From a virus (taxonomy: Duplodnaviria; Heunggongvirae; Uroviricota; Caudoviricetes), in IMG/VR virus record IMGVR_UViG_2639763115_000004, positions 1 through 7,299 of that record: a stretch of 7,299 bases of DNA; one strand, 5' to 3'. Shown piece by piece: positions 1 through 7,299 of this stretch (the stretch's first letter is position 1; every line of letters starts with the position of its first letter). The position numbers and the translations under genes were made by a program. The notes beneath the pieces were generated by a model. It was not told where the DNA came from, made no database searches, and was given only the letters and a program-made list of their open reading frames with translations.

Positions 1-63
1 ATCATACTTCAGCACATTAGGAAAATAGAACTGCTGCGCACCATACGCATCATAAACAGCCAT
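1..63 (-). CDS. 5' end (21 codons, [21 protein letters not shown]) of the gene downstream of the O-like gene, in the position of a P/DnaC-like helicase loader; truncated by the window edge
   Basis: ATG at 63-61 (minus) preceded by a weak AAGG about 7 nt upstream; open to the window edge. Position only, no recognisable similarity. Confidence 0.25.
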
Positions 64-124
64 AGAATGGCCTTGCACGGTAACGAATTTGGCAATCTGT
101 CCGTTATATACAGGGTATCCTGTC

Positions 125-946
125 TCATGCAATCCCCCTGTCTGCAAACTTCCCTTCCCGTACTCCCGTTAACGAATCTTCCCTCAGCAGGTAATCAAAA
201 TCAGCTGTCCAGCCAGTGTCGTTGTCTCCGAAGTAAAACGGCTTGGCCTGATGCACAAACGCCCTGACATACGCTCTGAAACCGTCCACGTTTGGCGTTT
301 TCAGTTGCGGGATGATTTTCTTCAGGCGGCGTTTGCGTTTCTCATTGACCGCAACAGCGTGTGGCAGTCTGTCACCGACTTCGGTGTTGTAGGCGTTCAG
401 GAAGGATTCGTAGTCGATTCGTTCTGCCTTGCGACGTTCAGGTTTAACCTGCCCATCGCCGACCCCGTTAGGGGGTAAGGGGGTATTTGTATTTATTGTC
501 TTTTGTATATTGTCTTTTGTGTTTAGCTGACTTGGCTTATACCCATTAGCCGACTTGGCTAATGTTTTATTAGCTGTTTTAGCTAATGTTAAGCTGTCCT
601 GGCTAATCCACTGCGAAACCACCTTGTTCACTCCGATTTTCACGCCATCAGCAATGAGGAATTTACGCTCAATAAGCTGGCGCTTGGCAGCGCAAACATG
701 AGTGTGATGAATACCTGTCATGGCTGCTATCTGCGTGTTTGTGAGTCGATCCATCGGCTTATTGAATCCGTATGTCTTGCGCATGATAGCGAGCATCACC
801 TTCAGCTGCCGGACGGTTAAATCAGCCATCAGCAGACTGTCGGTAATCTCGTTAGCAACGCGCATGAAACCATCTTCGGTATCTGCCACGCGATGCTCCA
901 CGACCTCCAGTTGAGGCCTGTAATCAGCTAACTTAACGACGCCCAT
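125..946 (-). CDS. Replication initiator protein, lambda O-like N-terminal domain with a different C-terminal domain
   Basis: 273-aa ORF; AGGAG 7 nt upstream of the ATG at 946; N-terminal segment [29 protein letters not shown] aligns with recalled lambda O (ADLTKRQFKVLLAILRKTYGWNKPMDRIT); repetitive linker [18 protein letters not shown] encoded by DNA iterons. Confidence 0.85.
481..610. repeat. Putative replication origin iterons inside the O-like gene
   Basis: Tandem direct repeats: attgtcttttgt at 495-506 and 509-520; agctgacttggct at 525-537 with near-copy agccgacttggct at 548-560; ggctaat/agctaatg copies at 557-609. AT-rich and located at the O interdomain linker as in lambda ori. Confidence 0.5.
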
Positions 947-1094
947 GTTTCACTCCTGCTTTGGCTAGTCTGTAAACACCAACAAGGCGCTCTGCGAACG
1001 CCCTGTTATTTGCTGCGGCTACCACTAATCCCTCAGGTGAATCAGGGTGTCGAATCTCTTCTTTTTCCTGGTATTTCTTACGACGTTTTGTCAT
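933..1094 (-). CDS. Small basic hypothetical protein (53 aa, [53 protein letters not shown]) between cII and O
   Basis: Not in the ORF track (under 60 aa); found by manual translation. AGGAG 6 nt upstream of the ATG at 1094; stop overlaps the O-like start by 14 nt in a different frame. Confidence 0.4.
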   Translation of the reverse strand: MTKRRKKYQEKEEIRHPDSPEGLVVAAANNRAFAERLVGVYRLAKAGVKHGRR

Positions 1095-1128
1095 AATTAC
1101 TCCTGTGGATTGATCCAGTCTTTCTACA

Positions 1129-1410
1129 TCAGGCCTCGAAGAATTCGCCGTTCTTCGGGGCTTTTTCTTTTGTCAGGTAATTGGCAAGCCGCTTAGTCAG
1201 CTCAGCCATTTCATCGTCTTCGATTCCGTATTCCAGAACAGCCAGCATCATGCTTACCTGCGAGAAGAAACCATTCTTCCATCGGCTTACCTGATATTCA
1301 GGAACCCCCATTGCTCGAGCGAATGTCTTCTGCCCCATCAGTGCCAGTTTGTTCAGCAAGGCTGACTCGATGCGAGCCGCTTTCTTGCTTTTAGTTGCAA
1401 TAGTACCCAT
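1129..1410 (-). CDS. cII: CII-like transcriptional activator of lysogeny
   Basis: 93-aa ORF; RIESALLNK...QVSRWK...SMMLAVLEYGIEDDEMA aligns with recalled lambda CII (RIESALLNK...QISRWK...SMLLAVLEWGVVDDDMA), roughly 40 percent identity by eye; TAAGGAAAT-type RBS before the ATG at 1410. Confidence 0.85.
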   Translation of the reverse strand: MGTIATKSKKAARIESALLNKLALMGQKTFARAMGVPEYQVSRWKNGFFSQVSMMLAVLEYGIEDDEMAELTKRLANYLTKEKAPKNGEFFEA

Positions 1411-1486
1411 AGATAATTTCCTTAATGATTAGATAGAGTTGGCTTCGCAAAGAAACGCAAAACCATAGAGATTTGTTTCTGGTAAT

Positions 1487-1518
1487 GCCCTTTTTCAGGG
1501 CGGGGATGTGTAAGAGCG
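1487..1518 (-). promoter_or_regulatory. nutR (boxA CGCTCTTACA plus boxB GCCCTGAAAAAGGGC) between cro and cII
   Basis: Minus-strand reading CGCTCTTACACATCCCCGCCCTGAAAAAGGGC; close to recalled lambda nutR. boxB is a 5-bp stem with a GAAAAA loop. Confidence 0.7.
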
Positions 1519-1526
1519 AGAATGTC

Positions 1527-2879
<1,353 letters not shown>

Positions 2880-2928
2880 TCCCCACCTCAATCTCGATAA
2901 CCAAAAACAAACTATTTTTCATTTAAAA

Positions 2929-3002
2929 ACAACGGAGTTTGTTTTTCACGCCCCTTTTTACAATATATCTTGTTTACAACATACAATCTTTCTTGTGATT
3001 TT
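2929..3002 (+). promoter_or_regulatory. 434-type OL operators (2929-2942, 2960-2973, 2983-2996) and putative pL promoter
   Basis: Three ACAA-N6-TTGT sites (acaacggagtttgt, acaatatatcttgt, acaatctttcttgt); candidate -35 TTTACA at 2973-2978 and -10 GATTTT at 2997-3002, oriented toward nutL and N. Confidence 0.65.
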
Positions 3003-3040
3003 AAGCCATCAGCAGGACGCACTGACCACCATGAAGGTGA

Positions 3041-3071
3041 CGCTCTTAAAAATTAAGCCCTGAAGAAGGGC
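3041..3071 (+). promoter_or_regulatory. nutL (boxA CGCTCTTAA at 3041-3049, boxB GCCCTGAAGAAGGGC at 3057-3071)
   Basis: Identical to lambda nutL boxA/boxB as I recall them; boxB is a 5-bp stem with a GAAGA loop. Confidence 0.75.
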
Positions 3072-3243
3072 AGCATTCAAAGCAGAAGGCTTTGGGGTGT
3101 GGTGAAGGGTTCATGGATGGGAATATGTCGCACGTAAAGCGGCGAGGCCTGCGGAACTATTGCCGAATTGAAGTCGGCCGAAGCAGGTCGAAATGGGTCT
3201 CCCACCTACCACACCACCAAAGCTAACTGACAGGAGAATCCAG

Positions 3244-3831
3244 ATGGATGCACAAACACGCCGCCGCGAACGTCGCGCAGAGAAACAGGCTCAATGGAAA
3301 GCAGCAAATCCCCTGTTGGTTGGGGTAAGCGCAAAACCAGTTACCGTGCTTGCGCTTCTTGATGAACTGGAAGCTCAAAGCAAACGCATTGCAGAGCTGG
3401 AGAAAAAAGCTGCACCAGATTCGTTTGGCATCATCGGTGAAAATATTCGAACACAGGATAATCGAATAACGTCAGACCCTATGTTTTGTGTGTATCAAAA
3501 GCGCGAAATCGTTGTTGATGCTGATTATGACTATGACCGGATTGTCTGGGTTGATGAAGATGGTAATGAAGCCAATAAACGCCAAAGTCGTCGTCTCGAA
3601 CTACTTCACGAAAACTTTCGAGAGCCACCAGAAAAATGGCGGCGCGTTGCTGTGAAAGATATTGATGAATTCGTTACCTGCTGTTTCACCGAACAGGGTT
3701 GTAAATACTACCTAGCAGCCAATGGTCACAATCTTCGCTTGCCATTTATATATGTAAAAAGCGGTTTCAGGAACGCTGAATATATCGGCATAAGAAACTG
3801 GCTTGCTGGCATTCGCATCAAAGGAGAGTGA
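3244..3831 (+). CDS. N-like protein: lambda N arginine-rich motif (residues 1-33) fused to an unrelated C-terminal region of about 160 aa
   Basis: AGGAG at 3232-3236 then ATG at 3244; MDAQTRRRERRAEKQAQWKAANPLLVGVSAKPV matches recalled lambda N, then diverges completely (TVLALLDELEAQSKRIAELEKK...). The ORF-track start at 3193 lacks an RBS and is rejected. Confidence 0.65.
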   Translation: MDAQTRRRERRAEKQAQWKAANPLLVGVSAKPVTVLALLDELEAQSKRIAELEKKAAPDSFGIIGENIRTQDNRITSDPMFCVYQKREIVVDADYDYDRIVWVDEDGNEANKRQSRRLELLHENFREPPEKWRRVAVKDIDEFVTCCFTEQGCKYYLAANGHNLRLPFIYVKSGFRNAEYIGIRNWLAGIRIKGE

Positions 3832-3832
3832 T

Positions 3833-4096
3833 ATGGCAACTTTGACAAAAAAGGAACAGGCATGGTTGAGCGAATTACAGAACGTTCTTGATCGCTGCCC
3901 GTCACCGAAAAAAATTGGTTTTTACACCATTGGCGATAAAAGCATTTACCTGTATGACCTGCGCCGCATGGATGAAATCATGGAGGCTCTTGATAATCGT
4001 TCGTCGATGGATTGGTGTGTTGCTGTTCATGATATGAATGCAGGGTTTGATGAAAAGATTTTGTTCCCCTCATCAGTTGAAAGCACTGCGGGTTAA
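3833..4096 (+). CDS. Hypothetical protein (87 aa), tightly coupled to the N-like gene
   Basis: AAGGAGA at 3821-3827, ATG at 3833, two nt after the upstream stop at 3829-3831. No recognisable domain. Confidence 0.6.
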   Translation: MATLTKKEQAWLSELQNVLDRCPSPKKIGFYTIGDKSIYLYDLRRMDEIMEALDNRSSMDWCVAVHDMNAGFDEKILFPSSVESTAG

Positions 4097-4106
4097 GGAG
4101 TAACAC

Positions 4107-4703
4107 ATGACCACTATTACCAAAGAACGTATTGAATTGTTCATTAAAAATCCGCTTGAAAACGGACTTACCCGTGGCGAACAAATGGAACTGGCACGAA
4201 TTGCTCTGGCATCGCTGCAACGCGAACAGATTCGCCACGAGCATGCCAAATGGTCTGACTCCACATTTGGCTGCGTTGGCCCCATTGGTCCGCTGAAACA
4301 TCTCTCAAAAGAGGCACTGGAAGCCGCAGCCGAACCAGACGATCTTAGCGAGTGGGCTGATATGCAGTTTCTGTTGTGGGATGCACAGCGCCGTGCTGGC
4401 ATCAGCGATGCTGAAATTACCGCTGCTATGGAAGATAAATTGAAGATCAACATGGAGCGCCAGTGGCCTGAGCCAAAAGATGGTGAGCCTCGCTTGCACA
4501 TTAAAGAACCCGGCAACTCTCCGGTAATTCCGGATGGTTGGGTTATGGTGCCGAAGGAGTTAACCCCGGAAATGATGAGAGCCGTTCAGATTAGAAGTGA
4601 GCTTGGAGGGTATGCCACTTCCAATCTATCTGGTGCATACAATATGTTTTCTGAGTTCTGGAATGTTGCTGTCTCAGCTGCGCCTAAGGTGGATGATTTA
4701 TGA
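4107..4703 (+). CDS. Putative MazG-like nucleotide pyrophosphohydrolase (DUF550-like N-domain, DUF551-like C-terminal region)
   Basis: AAGGAG at 4095-4100; segment EALEAAAEPDDLSEWADMQFLLWDAQRRAGISDAEITAAMEDKLKINMERQW resembles the all-alpha MazG/NTP-PPase motif (EExxE ... ELGD-like ... KL.xNxxR). Confidence 0.55.
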   Translation: MTTITKERIELFIKNPLENGLTRGEQMELARIALASLQREQIRHEHAKWSDSTFGCVGPIGPLKHLSKEALEAAAEPDDLSEWADMQFLLWDAQRRAGISDAEITAAMEDKLKINMERQWPEPKDGEPRLHIKEPGNSPVIPDGWVMVPKELTPEMMRAVQIRSELGGYATSNLSGAYNMFSEFWNVAVSAAPKVDDL

Positions 4704-5002
4704 ATCTATATCGCTGCCCATTCTGTGGTTCCACTGTGCTTAACATCGGATACTCATTCAGTATCAGAGGGAAAATGCGCTATGTGTCATGCAAATGTGG
4801 TGCCCAAGGACCAGAAAAACGAACTAAATCTGAAGCGATTTCTTCATGGAATAGTCGAATGAAAGTATGGGTTTATGATCCAGAAACCATATTAAACGCT
4901 GAAGAGCGCAGGAGAACGGAAGTCTATATTCATAACCTTAATGAAGATGGATTTACACCAGTGCTTGTAAAGGCTACTCCGCAGGAGGTTAACCATGGCT
5001 AA
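4700..5002 (+). CDS. Lar-family putative restriction-alleviation (anti-restriction) protein with a C-terminal extension
   Basis: ATGA overlap with the upstream stop; N-terminus MNLYRCPFCGSTVL...CKCGAQGP...AISSWNSR has the CPFCG plus CxC plus A..WN.R signature I associate with Lar-family zinc-ribbon proteins. Confidence 0.55.
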   Translation: MNLYRCPFCGSTVLNIGYSFSIRGKMRYVSCKCGAQGPEKRTKSEAISSWNSRMKVWVYDPETILNAEERRRTEVYIHNLNEDGFTPVLVKATPQEVNHG

Positions 5003-5064
5003 CCTGCAACTTGCCGTCAAAGGTGAATAACAATCCTCGCACTCGCGGGGATTTCTTTTATCTG

Positions 5065-5090
5065 AACTCGCTACGGCGAGTTTTGTTTTA
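5065..5090 (+). terminator. Putative intrinsic terminator after the Lar-like gene
   Basis: Stem aactcgc (5065-5071), loop tacg, stem gcgagtt (5076-5082), then T-rich ttgtttta. Confidence 0.45.
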
Positions 5091-5102
5091 TGGAGATGAT
5101 AA

Positions 5103-5270
5103 ATGCACTTCCGAGTCACAGGTGAATGGAATGGAGAACCATTCAACAGAGTTATCGAAGCAGAGGACATCAACGACTGCTATAACCACTGGATGATATG
5201 GGCGCAGATAGCGCATGCAGACGTAACCAATATTCGAATTGAAGAACTGAAAGAACACCAAGCCGCCTGA
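5103..5270 (+). CDS. Small hypothetical prophage protein (55 aa, MHFRVTGEWNGEPFNRVIEAEDINDCYNHWMIWAQIAHADVTNIRIEELKEHQAA)
   Basis: GGAGA 7 nt upstream of the ATG at 5103; followed at once by a terminator hairpin. Not in the ORF track (under 60 aa). Confidence 0.5.
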   Translation: MHFRVTGEWNGEPFNRVIEAEDINDCYNHWMIWAQIAHADVTNIRIEELKEHQAA

Positions 5271-5283
5271 TGGCGGTTTTTTA
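5261..5283 (+). terminator. Putative intrinsic terminator
   Basis: ccgcc (5263-5267), loop tgat, ggcgg (5272-5276), then tttttt (5277-5282); overlaps the stop codon of the 55-aa gene. Confidence 0.55.
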
Positions 5284-5293
5284 TTGCCTGATT

Positions 5294-5308
5294 TGCAGGT
5301 TCGATTCC
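5294..5308 (+). other. tRNA-derived fragment: 15 nt identical to the T-arm 5' half of tRNA-Arg(CCU) argW (tgcaggttcgattcc)
   Basis: Exact 15-nt match to recalled argW, with degenerate similarity a few nt upstream; the rest of the tRNA is absent. Confidence 0.4.
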
Positions 5309-5327
5309 CTATTCGGAGATAGCACTC

Positions 5328-5528
5328 ATGCAACACGAACTACAGCCTGATTCACTGGTTGATTTGAAATTCATCATGGCCGATACTGGCTTCGGTAAAA
5401 CCTTCATCTACGACCGGATTAAGTCCGGCGACCTGCCAAAAGCCAAAGTTATCCACGGACGAGCAAGATGGTTATATCGTGACCATTGTGAATTCAAAAA
5501 TAAGCTCTTAAGCCGCGCTAATGGGTAA
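5328..5528 (+). CDS. torI: AlpA-family excisionase / recombination directionality factor (TorI-like, 66 aa)
   Basis: SLVDLKFIMADTGFGKTFIYDRIKSGDLPKAKVIHGRARWLY fits the AlpA/Xis winged-helix pattern; length and position next to an argW attR core fit KplE1 TorI as I recall it. GGAGA 8 nt upstream. Confidence 0.7.
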   Translation: MQHELQPDSLVDLKFIMADTGFGKTFIYDRIKSGDLPKAKVIHGRARWLYRDHCEFKNKLLSRANG

Positions 5529-5544
5529 AATAGCGGGTAAAATA
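5523..5544 (+). repeat. Tandem direct repeat gggtaaaata x2 (5523-5532, 5535-5544), candidate RDF or integrase arm-type binding sites
   Basis: Two exact 10-bp copies at a 12-bp period spanning the torI-like stop codon, about 60 bp from the att core. Confidence 0.35.
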
Positions 5545-5602
5545 TTTCTCACATCTAAAAAATATCATTCCAATCAATCCCCTGCCGCGCCAAGTAGATG
5601 TC

Positions 5603-5617
5603 TGCAGGGGACACCAT
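5603..5617 (+). other. Putative attR core: terminal 15 nt of tRNA-Arg(CCU) argW (ctgcaggggacacca)
   Basis: Exact match to the recalled argW 3' end including CCA; no intact tRNA upstream, so this is a duplicated att core rather than a gene. Confidence 0.6.
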
Positions 5618-6000
5618 TTATCCTTCCAACGAAATCCACCTTCCCCGCGTAAAAGTTGGGTTTGGCAGCACACTTGCCCTAAATCTACTCATTTTCCCTG
5701 CAACAGGTTGAAATCTCAGCACTGTGCGGCGATGACTAAACAGCCCCGGGCCTGGCAATGTATTCATCACACAGAATCCTGATCGCGAAATCTGGCTTGA
5801 CTCGATACTTCACTCCGCAATGCATTCCTTGATGGATTAGCAGGCCCGTGATACACGGGACAGGTCGCTGAATTACGACAATTTCCTGGAAATCAGCGAA
5901 CCGCGTATCCTGAGTACATTTGAGCGACTGTTCCAGAACATGAATGAGGCGTTTGGATTAGGCGATTATTAGCCGCGCTAAGCATTTTGGTATTATTATT

Positions 6001-6040
6001 TTCCGGTTGAGGGATATAGAGCTATCGACAACAACCGGAA
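6001..6040. repeat. 9-bp inverted repeat ttccggttg / caaccggaa with a 22-nt spacer, 12 bp downstream of the cscB stop
   Basis: Perfect reverse-complement arms at 6001-6009 and 6032-6040; no U-tract on the cscB transcript side, so not a canonical terminator. Confidence 0.3.
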
Positions 6041-6051
6041 AGAGTTTACGT

Positions 6052-7299
6052 CTATATTGCAGAAGGTACAGGCGTTTCCATCACCATTTGCTCACGCTTT
6101 TTACTCAGGAAGAAAATGCCAAATAACAACATCAGGCAGACAATACCCGAAATTACGAAGAAAACCGTCTGGTAACCTGCATGGTCAAAAAGTATTCCAG
6201 TCGGCGTTGAAAGCAACACAATCCCCAACGAACTAGCAATTTGAAAACCAATCAGAAAGATCGTCGACGACAGGCGCTTATCAAAGTTTGCCACGCTGTA
6301 TTTGAAGACGGAAATGACACACAGTGGAACCTCAATGGCATGTAACAGCTTCACTAATGAAATAATCCAGGGATTAACGAACAGTGCGCAGGAAAGAATA
6401 CGCAACGCCATAATCACAACACCGATAAGTAATGCATTTTTTGGCCCTACCCGGTTAACAAAGAAAGGAATAATGGCCATGCACAGCGCTTCGAGTACAA
6501 CCTGGAATGAGTTGAGATAACCATACAGGCGCGTTCCTACATCGTGTGATTCGAATAAACCTGCATAAAAAACAGGAAAGAGCTGTTGATCAAAAATGTT
6601 ATAGAAAGACCACGTCCCCACAATAAATATGACGAAAATCCAGAAGTTTCGATCCTTGAAAACTGCAATAAAATCCTCTTTTTTTACCCCTCCCGCATCT
6701 GCCGCTACGCACTGCTGATCCTGATATTTAAAACGCATGTTGATCATCATAAATACAGCGCCAAATAGCGAAACCAACCAGAAGTTGATATGGGGACTGA
6801 TACTGAAAAATATGCCAGCAAAGAACGCGCCAATCGCATAGCCAAAAGATCCCCAGGCGCGCGCTGTTCCATATTCGAAATGAAAATTTCGTGCCATTTT
6901 TTCGGTGAAGCTATCAAGCAGACCGCAGCCCGCCAGATACCCCAAGCCAAAAAAGAGCGCCCCCAAAATTAGACCTACAGAAAAATTGCTTTGCAGTAAC
7001 GGTTCATAAACGTAAATCATAAACGGTCCGGTCAAGACCAGGATGAAACTCATACACCAGATAAGCGGTTTCTTCAGACCGAGTTTATCCTGGACGATGC
7101 CGTAGACCATCATAAATAGAATACTGGTAAACTGGTTGACCGAATAAAGTGTACCTAATTCCGTCCCAGTCAACCCTAGATGTCCTTTCAGCCAAATAGC
7201 GTATAACGACCACCACAGCGACCAGGAAATAAAAAAGAGAAATGAGTAACTGGATGCAAAACGATAGTACACATTTCTGAATGGTATATTCAGTGCCAT
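6052..7299 (-). CDS. cscB: Sucrose:H+ symporter, LacY-family MFS oligosaccharide permease (CscB-like, 415 aa)
   Basis: Complete 415-aa ORF with its start codon at the window edge; multi-TM hydrophobic protein whose N-terminus MALNIPFRNVYYRFASSYSFLFFISWSLWW and length match CscB as I recall it; clear LacY-family similarity. Confidence 0.8.
   Translation of the reverse strand: MALNIPFRNVYYRFASSYSFLFFISWSLWWSLYAIWLKGHLGLTGTELGTLYSVNQFTSILFMMVYGIVQDKLGLKKPLIWCMSFILVLTGPFMIYVYEPLLQSNFSVGLILGALFFGLGYLAGCGLLDSFTEKMARNFHFEYGTARAWGSFGYAIGAFFAGIFFSISPHINFWLVSLFGAVFMMINMRFKYQDQQCVAADAGGVKKEDFIAVFKDRNFWIFVIFIVGTWSFYNIFDQQLFPVFYAGLFESHDVGTRLYGYLNSFQVVLEALCMAIIPFFVNRVGPKNALLIGVVIMALRILSCALFVNPWIISLVKLLHAIEVPLCVISVFKYSVANFDKRLSSTIFLIGFQIASSLGIVLLSTPTGILFDHAGYQTVFFVISGIVCLMLLFGIFFLSKKREQMVMETPVPSAI

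Follow-up and report, generated by a model that had tools for sequence, protein, structure and literature searches.

The genetic switch of phage 434 is a textbook case. In a lysogen, PRM transcription must not enter nutL-N or the toxic PL operon, and lambda uses a strong terminator for this need. The lambda terminator, tIMM, lies directly after rexB in the cI-rexA-rexB operon and reads AACCCGGCCTCAGCGCCGGGTT, followed by TTCTTT. The folding energy of its core is -14.0 kcal/mol, or about -21 kcal/mol with the flanks. It is a canonical terminator, with an 8-bp GC-rich stem, a 6-nt loop and a T-run. It is located about 145 bp upstream of OL3, is independent of it, and presumably keeps PRM/PLIT transcription from the PL operon.

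The same slot, which runs on the sense strand from the last gene of the PRM operon to OL3, has been compared in other lambdoid phages. In mEp213, a phage whose cI shares 55% identity with that of 434, AAACCCGCTTCGGCGGGTTT and then a T-run are found right after cI, with a core of -12.2 kcal/mol. In imm21 (phage DE3), AAGGGGCTTTCGCCCCTT and then a T-run come after C2. Both are canonical GC-rich hairpins with 4-nt loops and energies of about -12 to -17 kcal/mol, and neither overlaps an operator. The slot of ES18 holds a GC hairpin without a T-run, which is not a canonical terminator, and no terminator was detected right after cI in HK97. A strong terminator in the slot is usual but not universal.

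In phages of 434 type the last gene of the PRM operon is hex, which RT-PCR has shown to be co-transcribed from PRM (PMC3564112). The sequence that follows hex has long been public in 434 and Sf6. As far as we found, neither an inverted repeat in it, nor the longer hairpin to which the repeat belongs, nor the end of the 434-type PRM operon has been described, and the literature searched gave no mapping of the RNA 3' end of a 434-type PRM transcript and no footprint data for the DNA upstream of OL3. Here we analyse this segment in a prophage and in its relatives.

Results

The DNA analysed, called the window, is a stretch of 7,299 nucleotides (positions 1 to 7,299 of the IMG/VR virus record IMGVR_UViG_2639763115_000004). 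Judged from its sequence, the window is a defective lambdoid prophage with an immunity region of 434 type. Sequence comparison showed that the DNA of positions 2400-3300 is 97-99% identical to that of Sf6, HK633 and 434. The cI of the window is 99-100% identical to the cI of 434, Sf6, HK633 and HK446. Among the records inspected, cI identity drops directly from 99% to below 60%, with three records at 60-80% left out. The ATG of the next gene, hex, overlaps the cI stop codon as ATGA at 2475-2478, and hex is annotated at the equivalent place in the phage 434 record. Hex was found only alongside 434 immunity, in 13 phage records with protein identities to the window of 97.7-100%, including 98.5% for 434 and 100% for Sf6. 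A scan of genome contigs for more divergent relatives of Hex gave no match. A preliminary description, made from the letters of the window, had proposed a 434-type immunity region with a cI-coupled gene, and both the alignment and the annotation of the relatives agree with this. The features of the region are as follows.

1846-2478, plus strand: cI repressor gene of 434 type, 210-aa ORF, gene 1 of the PRM operon
2475-2879, plus strand: hex homologue (Hex / gene 38), last gene of the PRM operon
2880-2902, plus strand: 3' UTR spacer, C-rich, G-poor, rut-like in composition, polymorphic in 10 of 23 columns
2903-2913, plus strand: left arm of the repeat, AAAAACAAACT, 5' strand of the outer stem, includes ACAAACT at 2907-2913
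2913-2917, plus strand: bulge UAUUU, 5 nt on the 5' side in the folds of most relatives
2918-2923, plus strand: 5' strand of the inner helix, UCCGUU in 434 and UUCAUU in the window
2924-2930, plus strand: loop UAAAAAC, made of the A-flank and the first OL3 bases, invariant
2925-2946, no strand assigned: extended 22-bp palindrome AAAAACAA-N6-TTGTTTTT around OL3, comprising two of three 8-mers
2929-2942, no strand assigned: OL3, ACAACGGAGTTTGT, distal left operator for 434 repressor and Cro, ACAA-N6-TTGT with 0 mismatches
2936-2946, plus strand: right arm of the repeat, AGTTTGTTTTT, PL-proximal half of OL3 and its T4 flank
2947-2959, no strand assigned: spacer from the U-run/OL3 flank to OL2, hypervariable, 12-14 bp
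2960-2973, no strand assigned: OL2, ACAA-N6-TTGT operator, aligned with 434
2983-2996, no strand assigned: OL1, ACAA-N6-TTGT operator, aligned with 434
2973-3001, plus strand: PL promoter, -35 TTTACA at 2973-2978 and -10 TGATTT at 2996-3001, position from the 434 annotation
3057-3071, plus strand: nutL boxB hairpin, inverted repeat GCCCTGAAGAAGGGC, nutL annotated there in 434

Transcription from PL starts near 3008, and the start of N lies downstream of PL and of the nutL boxB. A cscB gene is found shortly downstream of an xis/AlpA-like ORF. The untranslated segment 2880-2960 contains 22 C and 6 G, which is a rut-like composition. The RT primer of the Hex paper, CGAGATTGAGGTGGGGATTAC, is the complement of window positions 2876-2896 (PMC3564112). 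The PRM transcript therefore extends at least to position 2896, 7 nt short of the left arm.

The preliminary description had pointed to an exact 11-bp inverted repeat at 2903-2913 and 2936-2946, between the end of hex and PL and overlapping the distal operator. The repeat, its coordinates and its placement were all confirmed. The arms are exact reverse complements separated by 22 nt and are found past the hex stop (2879) and before PL. The operator that they overlap is the real OL3, which aligns with the annotated oL3 of 434. Among perfect inverted repeats whose arms are 11 bp or longer and are no more than 40 nt apart, it is the only one in the window. On the PRM-sense strand the left arm begins 24 nt past the hex stop, and in RNA the right arm provides the stem's 3' strand, which ends in U5. 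All three copies in the window of the 8-mer AAAAACAA are inside the 44 bp of the repeat. One is in the left arm; the other two, at 2925-2932 and inverted at 2939-2946, make the extended palindrome around OL3. The left-arm copy and the copy at 2925-2932 form a direct repeat 22 bp apart, and 15 of 22 bases are common to 2903-2924 and 2925-2946.

We measured how often such a repeat arises by chance. When the whole window was shuffled with its dinucleotides preserved, at least one such repeat appeared in 7% of trials, and shuffling 2880-3000 alone gave one in 0.24% of trials. In a stricter null, OL3 and its flank were held fixed and only the 45 nt upstream were shuffled; the observed folding energy was then matched in 3% of trials for 434 and in 10.5% for the window. 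The repeat is real, and it is moderately, not overwhelmingly, beyond chance. It is partly compositional, in that an A-rich 3' UTR adjoins a T-flanked palindromic operator.

Conservation was examined at 91 homologous loci (from 80 IMG/VR contigs that carry an identical cI, and from 12 annotated records of phages or E. coli), which gave 54 haplotypes, or 55 with the window. Across these sequences, the inverted repeat is conserved in the phages with 434-type immunity that were examined. The pi values of the segments are given below.

hex 3' end: 0.022
2880-2902: 0.099
Left arm: 0.007, invariant in 54 of 55 haplotypes
2914-2928: 0.034, with two linked common sites
OL3: 0.020
OL3-OL2 spacer (2947-2959): 0.223, with 13 of 14 alignment columns polymorphic and with indels
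OL2: 0.016
OL1: 0.013

The 44-bp block is constrained like the true operators and is found between two freely varying flanks. A small ORF was considered as the reason for this conservation and was rejected, as 434 and the window do not have the same short ORFs and these ORFs cross the indel-rich spacer. Because the left arm and the spacer are operator-like in conservation, their neighbours of 23 bp and 13 bp are highly polymorphic, and no conserved ORF covers the block, some constraint on the block is indicated.

The variants within the block were compared with the predicted pairing. The bulge is invariant in the 55 haplotypes, and among extra loci from a second IMG/VR pattern scan the sole new block variant was a T-to-G change in the bulge (L176), next to one false positive. 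The common polymorphisms, C/T at 2919 and G/A at 2921, keep standard or wobble pairs on the plus strand, as does T/C at 2933 on the G2921 background. C is the minor allele at 2933 (3 of 55 haplotypes). Changes that break pairs are confined to rare haplotypes and affect 2905 together with 2912 (one haplotype), 2935 and 2937. Each right-arm variant alters one side of the stem only: at 2937 the G is replaced by A or T, and at 2946 the T is replaced by G, which touches the terminal pair only. In a covariation test of 25 distinct sequences with little variation, 98% of the cells were paired, double-sided changes numbered 0, and the result was no better than that of shuffles. The unpaired bases of the bulge and the loop are conserved as strongly as the paired bases. 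This indicates that RNA pairing alone is insufficient to explain the conservation.

The presumed 3' end of the PRM transcript was folded, as the preliminary description had advised. The repeat folds as a hairpin stem, which is weak in the window. In most relatives, including 434, it forms the outer part of a bulged hairpin with 16 bp in all. The 434 fold has a stem of 10 + 6 bp with 4 G-C pairs, a 5-nt bulge and a 7-nt loop. Its 10-bp outer stem is AAAAACAAAC / GUUUGUUUUU. The inner 6-bp helix, nested within the repeat in most relatives, joins 2918-2923 with 2931-2936, and in 434 (UCCGUU / AAUGGA) it pairs with the unique centre of OL3. Sense-strand energies were -11.1 kcal/mol for 434 (z -3.02; none of 200 shuffles reached this stability), -8.8 kcal/mol for Sf6 (z -2.2) and -7.3 kcal/mol for the window (z -1.45). 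Most of the 55 haplotypes gave -10.6 to -12.9 kcal/mol. The antisense strand gave no structural signal, with z scores of -0.29 in 434 and +0.28 in the window. This strand specificity is as expected if G.U pairs matter.

In the window, a stem of 11 bp, two of them G-C pairs, encloses a loop of 22 nt. This fold is weaker because T2919 and A2921, which weaken the 5' strand of the inner helix, together with the rare C2933 destroy that helix. The U-run, UUUUU at 2942-2946, is followed by CACGCCCC, and all 5 U are paired to the upstream A-tract in the predicted fold. When the pairs between the A-tract and the U-tract are not counted, the core hairpin has an energy of -5.1 kcal/mol for 434 and -1.4 kcal/mol for the window. 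A search for a known Rfam family returned only noise (E of 1 or more). A promoter was sought on either strand of 2880-2960, and none was found by scan, nor an acceptable -35/-10 pair by eye. A terminator pattern scan did not report the element, and the curated 434 and Sf6 records have terminators annotated elsewhere, with none at the repeat.

Discussion

The preliminary description had offered the repeat as a terminator or attenuator at the end of the PRM operon, or as an additional protein-binding site. An attenuator finds no backing in the folds, which contain only two very weak alternative pairings. The support for a terminator is indirect. It comes from the canonical terminators of lambda, mEp213 and imm21 in the equivalent slot, from the lack of another hairpin there in the 434 type, from a sense-strand fold that exceeds chance in 434 and Sf6, and from the conserved left strand. 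The element falls outside the definition of an intrinsic terminator. From the sequence, the fold energies, the conservation, the strand specificity and the positional analogy we infer, tentatively, that the repeat may be the base of a weak, operator-embedded terminator that ends the PRM operon and needs help from a repressor roadblock and/or from Rho. This is the reading that we prefer, while holding it to be possible and not yet probable.

The comparison with lambda carries much of this reading. Like tIMM, the element lies on the sense strand in the slot between the last gene of the PRM operon (hex stop at 2879) and OL3 (2929-2942), and it is the sole hairpin with a U-run between hex and nutL in the 434 type. 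It would have the same job. The mEp213 terminator likewise has the layout of A-tract, hairpin and U-tract, with the flanks AAAAACA...TTTTTTGTT. In contrast to the GC-rich hairpin of lambda, the 434-type element is A/U-rich and bulged, and its core is -5 kcal/mol or weaker. Unlike tIMM and the mEp213 and imm21 terminators, it is not separate from the operators, and its 3' half is operator sequence. An intrinsic terminator is expected to have a stable, usually GC-rich stem of 5 bp or more, including three or more G-C pairs, and a loop of 3-8 nt; such a hairpin was not found in the element. In the predicted fold, the few G-C pairs, the 5-nt bulge and the pairing of the 5-nt U-run count against an intrinsic terminator. 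The null with fixed OL3 also counts against the terminator reading (p about 0.03 for 434 and about 0.1 for the window), as do the negative pattern scan, the curated records, the lack of compensatory double changes and the conservation of unpaired bases. By analogy, so may ES18 and HK97, which have no canonical terminator in the slot. As a weak hairpin at an operon end that is embedded in an operator, the element fits neither the definition of an intrinsic terminator nor, in its left arm, that of an operator.

A mechanism can be proposed for such an element. The cI-hex transcript from PRM (and PRE) would carry in its 3' UTR a conserved A/U-rich bulged hairpin with the repeat as its outer stem. 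The 5' strand of the hairpin (2903-2923) would be 3'-UTR sequence, and the loop and 3' strand (2924-2946) would be encoded by OL3 and its A/T flanks. A-tract, hairpin and U5 would then be laid out at the position of the immunity-operon terminator (tIMM), and the hairpin would most likely mark the end of the PRM operon and shield nutL-N from PRM transcription. Because the hairpin is too weak alone, it would depend on polymerase being held at the U-run. In roadblock experiments, polymerase stalls about 13 bp short of a protein bound to the DNA. Repressor on OL2, 13 bp downstream of the last U, would stall polymerase at the U-run, and repressor on OL3 would stall it earlier, when it is over the AUUUU region of the bulge. 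Rho might also enter at the C-rich untranslated segment 2880-2902 and release the stalled complex. In termination at protein roadblocks, polymerase stalled by a DNA-bound repressor is released by Rho or Mfd. A precedent exists in vitro, where elongation complexes are stalled by a repressor roadblock and their RNA can be released by Rho (PMC1950744). The 434 type would resemble this case of lac repressor with release by Rho, having three repressor dimers directly downstream of untranslated RNA that is C-rich and then U-rich. The spacing in the 434 type suggests that a weak hairpin and U-run may be coupled to a roadblock located 13 bp farther downstream. Taken in full, a terminator built into the operator, in which repressor at OL2 or OL3 holds polymerase on the U-run and the hairpin or Rho releases the transcript, seems to us rather unlikely.

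A different explanation, which we regard as doubtful, is that the function of the block resides in the DNA. The conserved 44 bp, at -63 to -106 from the PL start, would be an accessory element of the left operator or PL, and the repeat as such would be incidental. Phased A/T tracts might bend the DNA. The block might also be a site for a nucleoid protein or for distal contacts of the polymerase alpha subunit, as in the IHF/UP region upstream of lambda PL, or an orphan half-site for repressor or Cro, 22 bp upstream, might help repressor to load or to stay on OL3, an intrinsically weak operator. Conservation extends over the whole block and takes in the bases that the RNA model leaves unpaired, and lambda too is AT-rich and rich in A-tracts upstream of OL3. 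A4 and T4 flank OL3 symmetrically and give the 22-bp palindrome, which suggests that the flanks matter for DNA binding. The left-arm half-site ACAAACT (2907-2913) is identical to the half-sites of OR1 and OL3. A site at 2907-2920 would have its centre (2913.5) 22 bp from that of OL3 (2935.5); the centres of OR1 and OR2 are 22 bp apart and those of OL2 and OL1 are 23 bp apart, and 22-23 bp is the distance for cooperative binding.

Several observations argue against a function of the block as DNA. A fourth operator ('OL4') at 2907-2920, ACAAACTATTTTTC, was tried and rejected. One half scored 7.8 and the other -5.0, giving a PWM score of 2.8 (rank 15 of 7286), as compared with 9.2-19.3 for the six real operators. 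Its second half is the non-site GAAAAAT, with one position polymorphic. In the operator family ACAA-N6-TTGT, exemplified by OL3 (ACAATGGAGTTTGT), the right arm is the PL-proximal half of OL3 with its flank, and the left arm lacks a second half-site at a distance of 6 bp and so is not a 14-bp operator. Lone half-sites as good as that of the left arm number about 24 in the 7.3-kb window. Of the additional protein-binding site first proposed, what stands is one perfect half-site; no full operator accompanies it. An IHF site upstream of PL was also rejected, the best match to WATCAANNNNTTR being AAACAAACTATTT at 2905-2917, with 2 mismatches at conserved positions. A promoter was sought on either strand of 2880-2960, and none was found by scan, nor an acceptable -35/-10 pair by eye. 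The true position of a UP element (-40 to -60) falls in the hypervariable spacer. A role in DNA also leaves unexplained the strand-specific fold signal and a complementarity that reaches bases that are not contacted (ACT/AGT) and, by way of the inner helix, the unique centre of OL3. The 11-nt identity of the arms includes bases that the 434 repressor does not read in repressor-operator structures.

It is likewise doubtful, in our estimate, that the repeat has no function and is a by-product of an A-rich 3' UTR beside a T-flanked palindromic operator, or of an old duplication of a 22-bp OL3 unit. In that case the arrest of PRM transcription would be left to the repressor roadblock and/or Rho alone, and the C-rich, G-poor, rut-like 3' UTR would suit this. 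The direct repetition of AAAAACAA at 22 bp is consistent with a duplication. That 3-10% of shuffled upstream sequences fold as well with OL3 fixed, and that 7% of whole-window shuffles hold an 11-bp repeat, also favours a by-product, as do the lack of covariation, the weakness of the hairpin and the natural variants with broken pairs, the window among them. However, a by-product would hardly be expected to show operator-like conservation of the left arm and spacer between highly polymorphic neighbours, with no conserved ORF over the block, or folds in 434 and Sf6 that are significantly stable and strand-specific.

We think it very improbable that the hairpin is instead a 3'-end stabiliser of the cI-hex mRNA, protecting it from 3' exonucleases, or a processing element (a site bound or cleaved by Hfq or RNase E, with an A-rich ARN-like run and a U-rich bulge), which would set repressor and Hex levels; the evidence from fold and conservation is the same as for the terminator and the single-stranded A-rich and U-rich parts are conserved, but no Rfam family was above noise, and a 3' end would still have to be generated here or downstream.

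The window itself holds a degraded copy of the hairpin in a decaying prophage. Its PL -10 is TGATTT, as compared with TAATTT in the other 54 haplotypes, a unique A-to-G change at 2997. Its N frame keeps the first 33-34 residues (Pfam N36) and continues into Ead/Ea22-like sequence. The degraded hairpin, the mutated PL -10 and the truncated N fit relaxed selection. Whatever the nature of the element, its role in 434 or Sf6 is probably poorly performed in the window, and with the prophage defective and the hairpin degraded the practical meaning for the window is small.

The meaning lies with lambda imm434 and Sf6, which are a heavily used model system. For the need that lambda serves with a strong terminator, the 434 type has only the weak hairpin embedded in its operator. 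If the fuller reading of a terminator built into the operator is true, the repressor would end transcription of its own operon and protect nutL-N from PRM read-through, and the 44 bp would have two readers, the repressor for the DNA and polymerase for the RNA. Working with bound repressor, it would be a compact case in which one sequence is both operator DNA and terminator RNA. If it does not work with bound repressor, the strongly conserved segment 2903-2928 would still mark an unrecognised functional element upstream of OL3.

OL3 and the sequence around it

Three left operators of the 434 type lie downstream of hex, the last gene of the PRM operon:
2929-2942, OL3
2960-2973, OL2
2983-2996, OL1

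OL3 is flanked symmetrically by A4 and T4, which extend it to a 22-bp palindrome, AAAAACAA-N6-TTGTTTTT, at positions 2925-2946. Flanks of this type are absent from OL1, OL2 and OR1-3. They may tune the affinity of OL3, an operator with a G/C-rich centre. The adjoining OL3-OL2 spacer (2947-2959) is hypervariable: across the haplotypes (55 distinct versions of the locus) polymorphisms occur in 13 of its 14 alignment columns, and its length ranges from 12 to 14 bp. The sequence on either side of it is nearly invariant.

A further operator-like site lies elsewhere in the window:
110-123, ACAGGGTATCCTGT, within the replication-initiator gene

Its score with the 434 operator matrix, 12.6, is below that of OR3 (13.3) and above that of the window's OL3 (9.2). 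The site could be a chance occurrence or an additional repressor/Cro site.

The end of the PRM operon

The segment directly 3' of the hex stop codon (2880-2902) is C-rich and G-poor; over 2880-2960 there are 22 C vs. 6 G. Rho could load here, where the PRM transcript is no longer translated. In phage ES18, a GC hairpin, GGGGCACCCGCCCC, follows c2 (positions 1535-1560 of locus L096) in the place between the last PRM-operon gene and OL where lambda has the terminator tIMM, and no T-run stands behind it. No terminator was detectable directly after cI in HK97. These two cases indicate that the manner in which the PRM operon ends varies between lambdoid immunity types.

The N-terminus of Hex

Translated from the ATG at 2475, Hex has an N-terminal stretch of 18 residues followed by E (N-terminal region, 2475-2540), and this N-terminus resembles a Sec signal peptide. 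A stable fragment of the protein, sHex, begins at Glu43 of the 158-aa ORF (PMC3564112), exactly after ANS. Hex had no Pfam match. Export of Hex would be hard to square with the proposal that it acts in the cytoplasm on the RecA-mediated cleavage of repressor.

N, PL and the state of the prophage

In the N frame (3244-3831), only residues 1-34 match lambda/434 N (Pfam N36), and unrelated Ead/Ea22-like sequence follows. The frame thus looks like a deletion fusion, which makes N almost certainly non-functional. The prophage itself looks defective, given that no integrase is in view in the window and that this gene is present:
6052-7299, cscB

The -10 hexamer of the leftward promoter PL is TGATTT (2996-3001) in the window and TAATTT in all 54 other haplotypes, including 434 and Sf6. 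This A-to-G substitution hits position -11, the most conserved of the -10 element, and has probably crippled PL. The locus of E. coli O157:H7 strain 2571 (L006) carries a 22-bp deletion, aligned to 2960-2982, by which OL2 and OL1 are joined and the -35 element of PL is lost. Here a 434-type prophage has lost PL by a different route.
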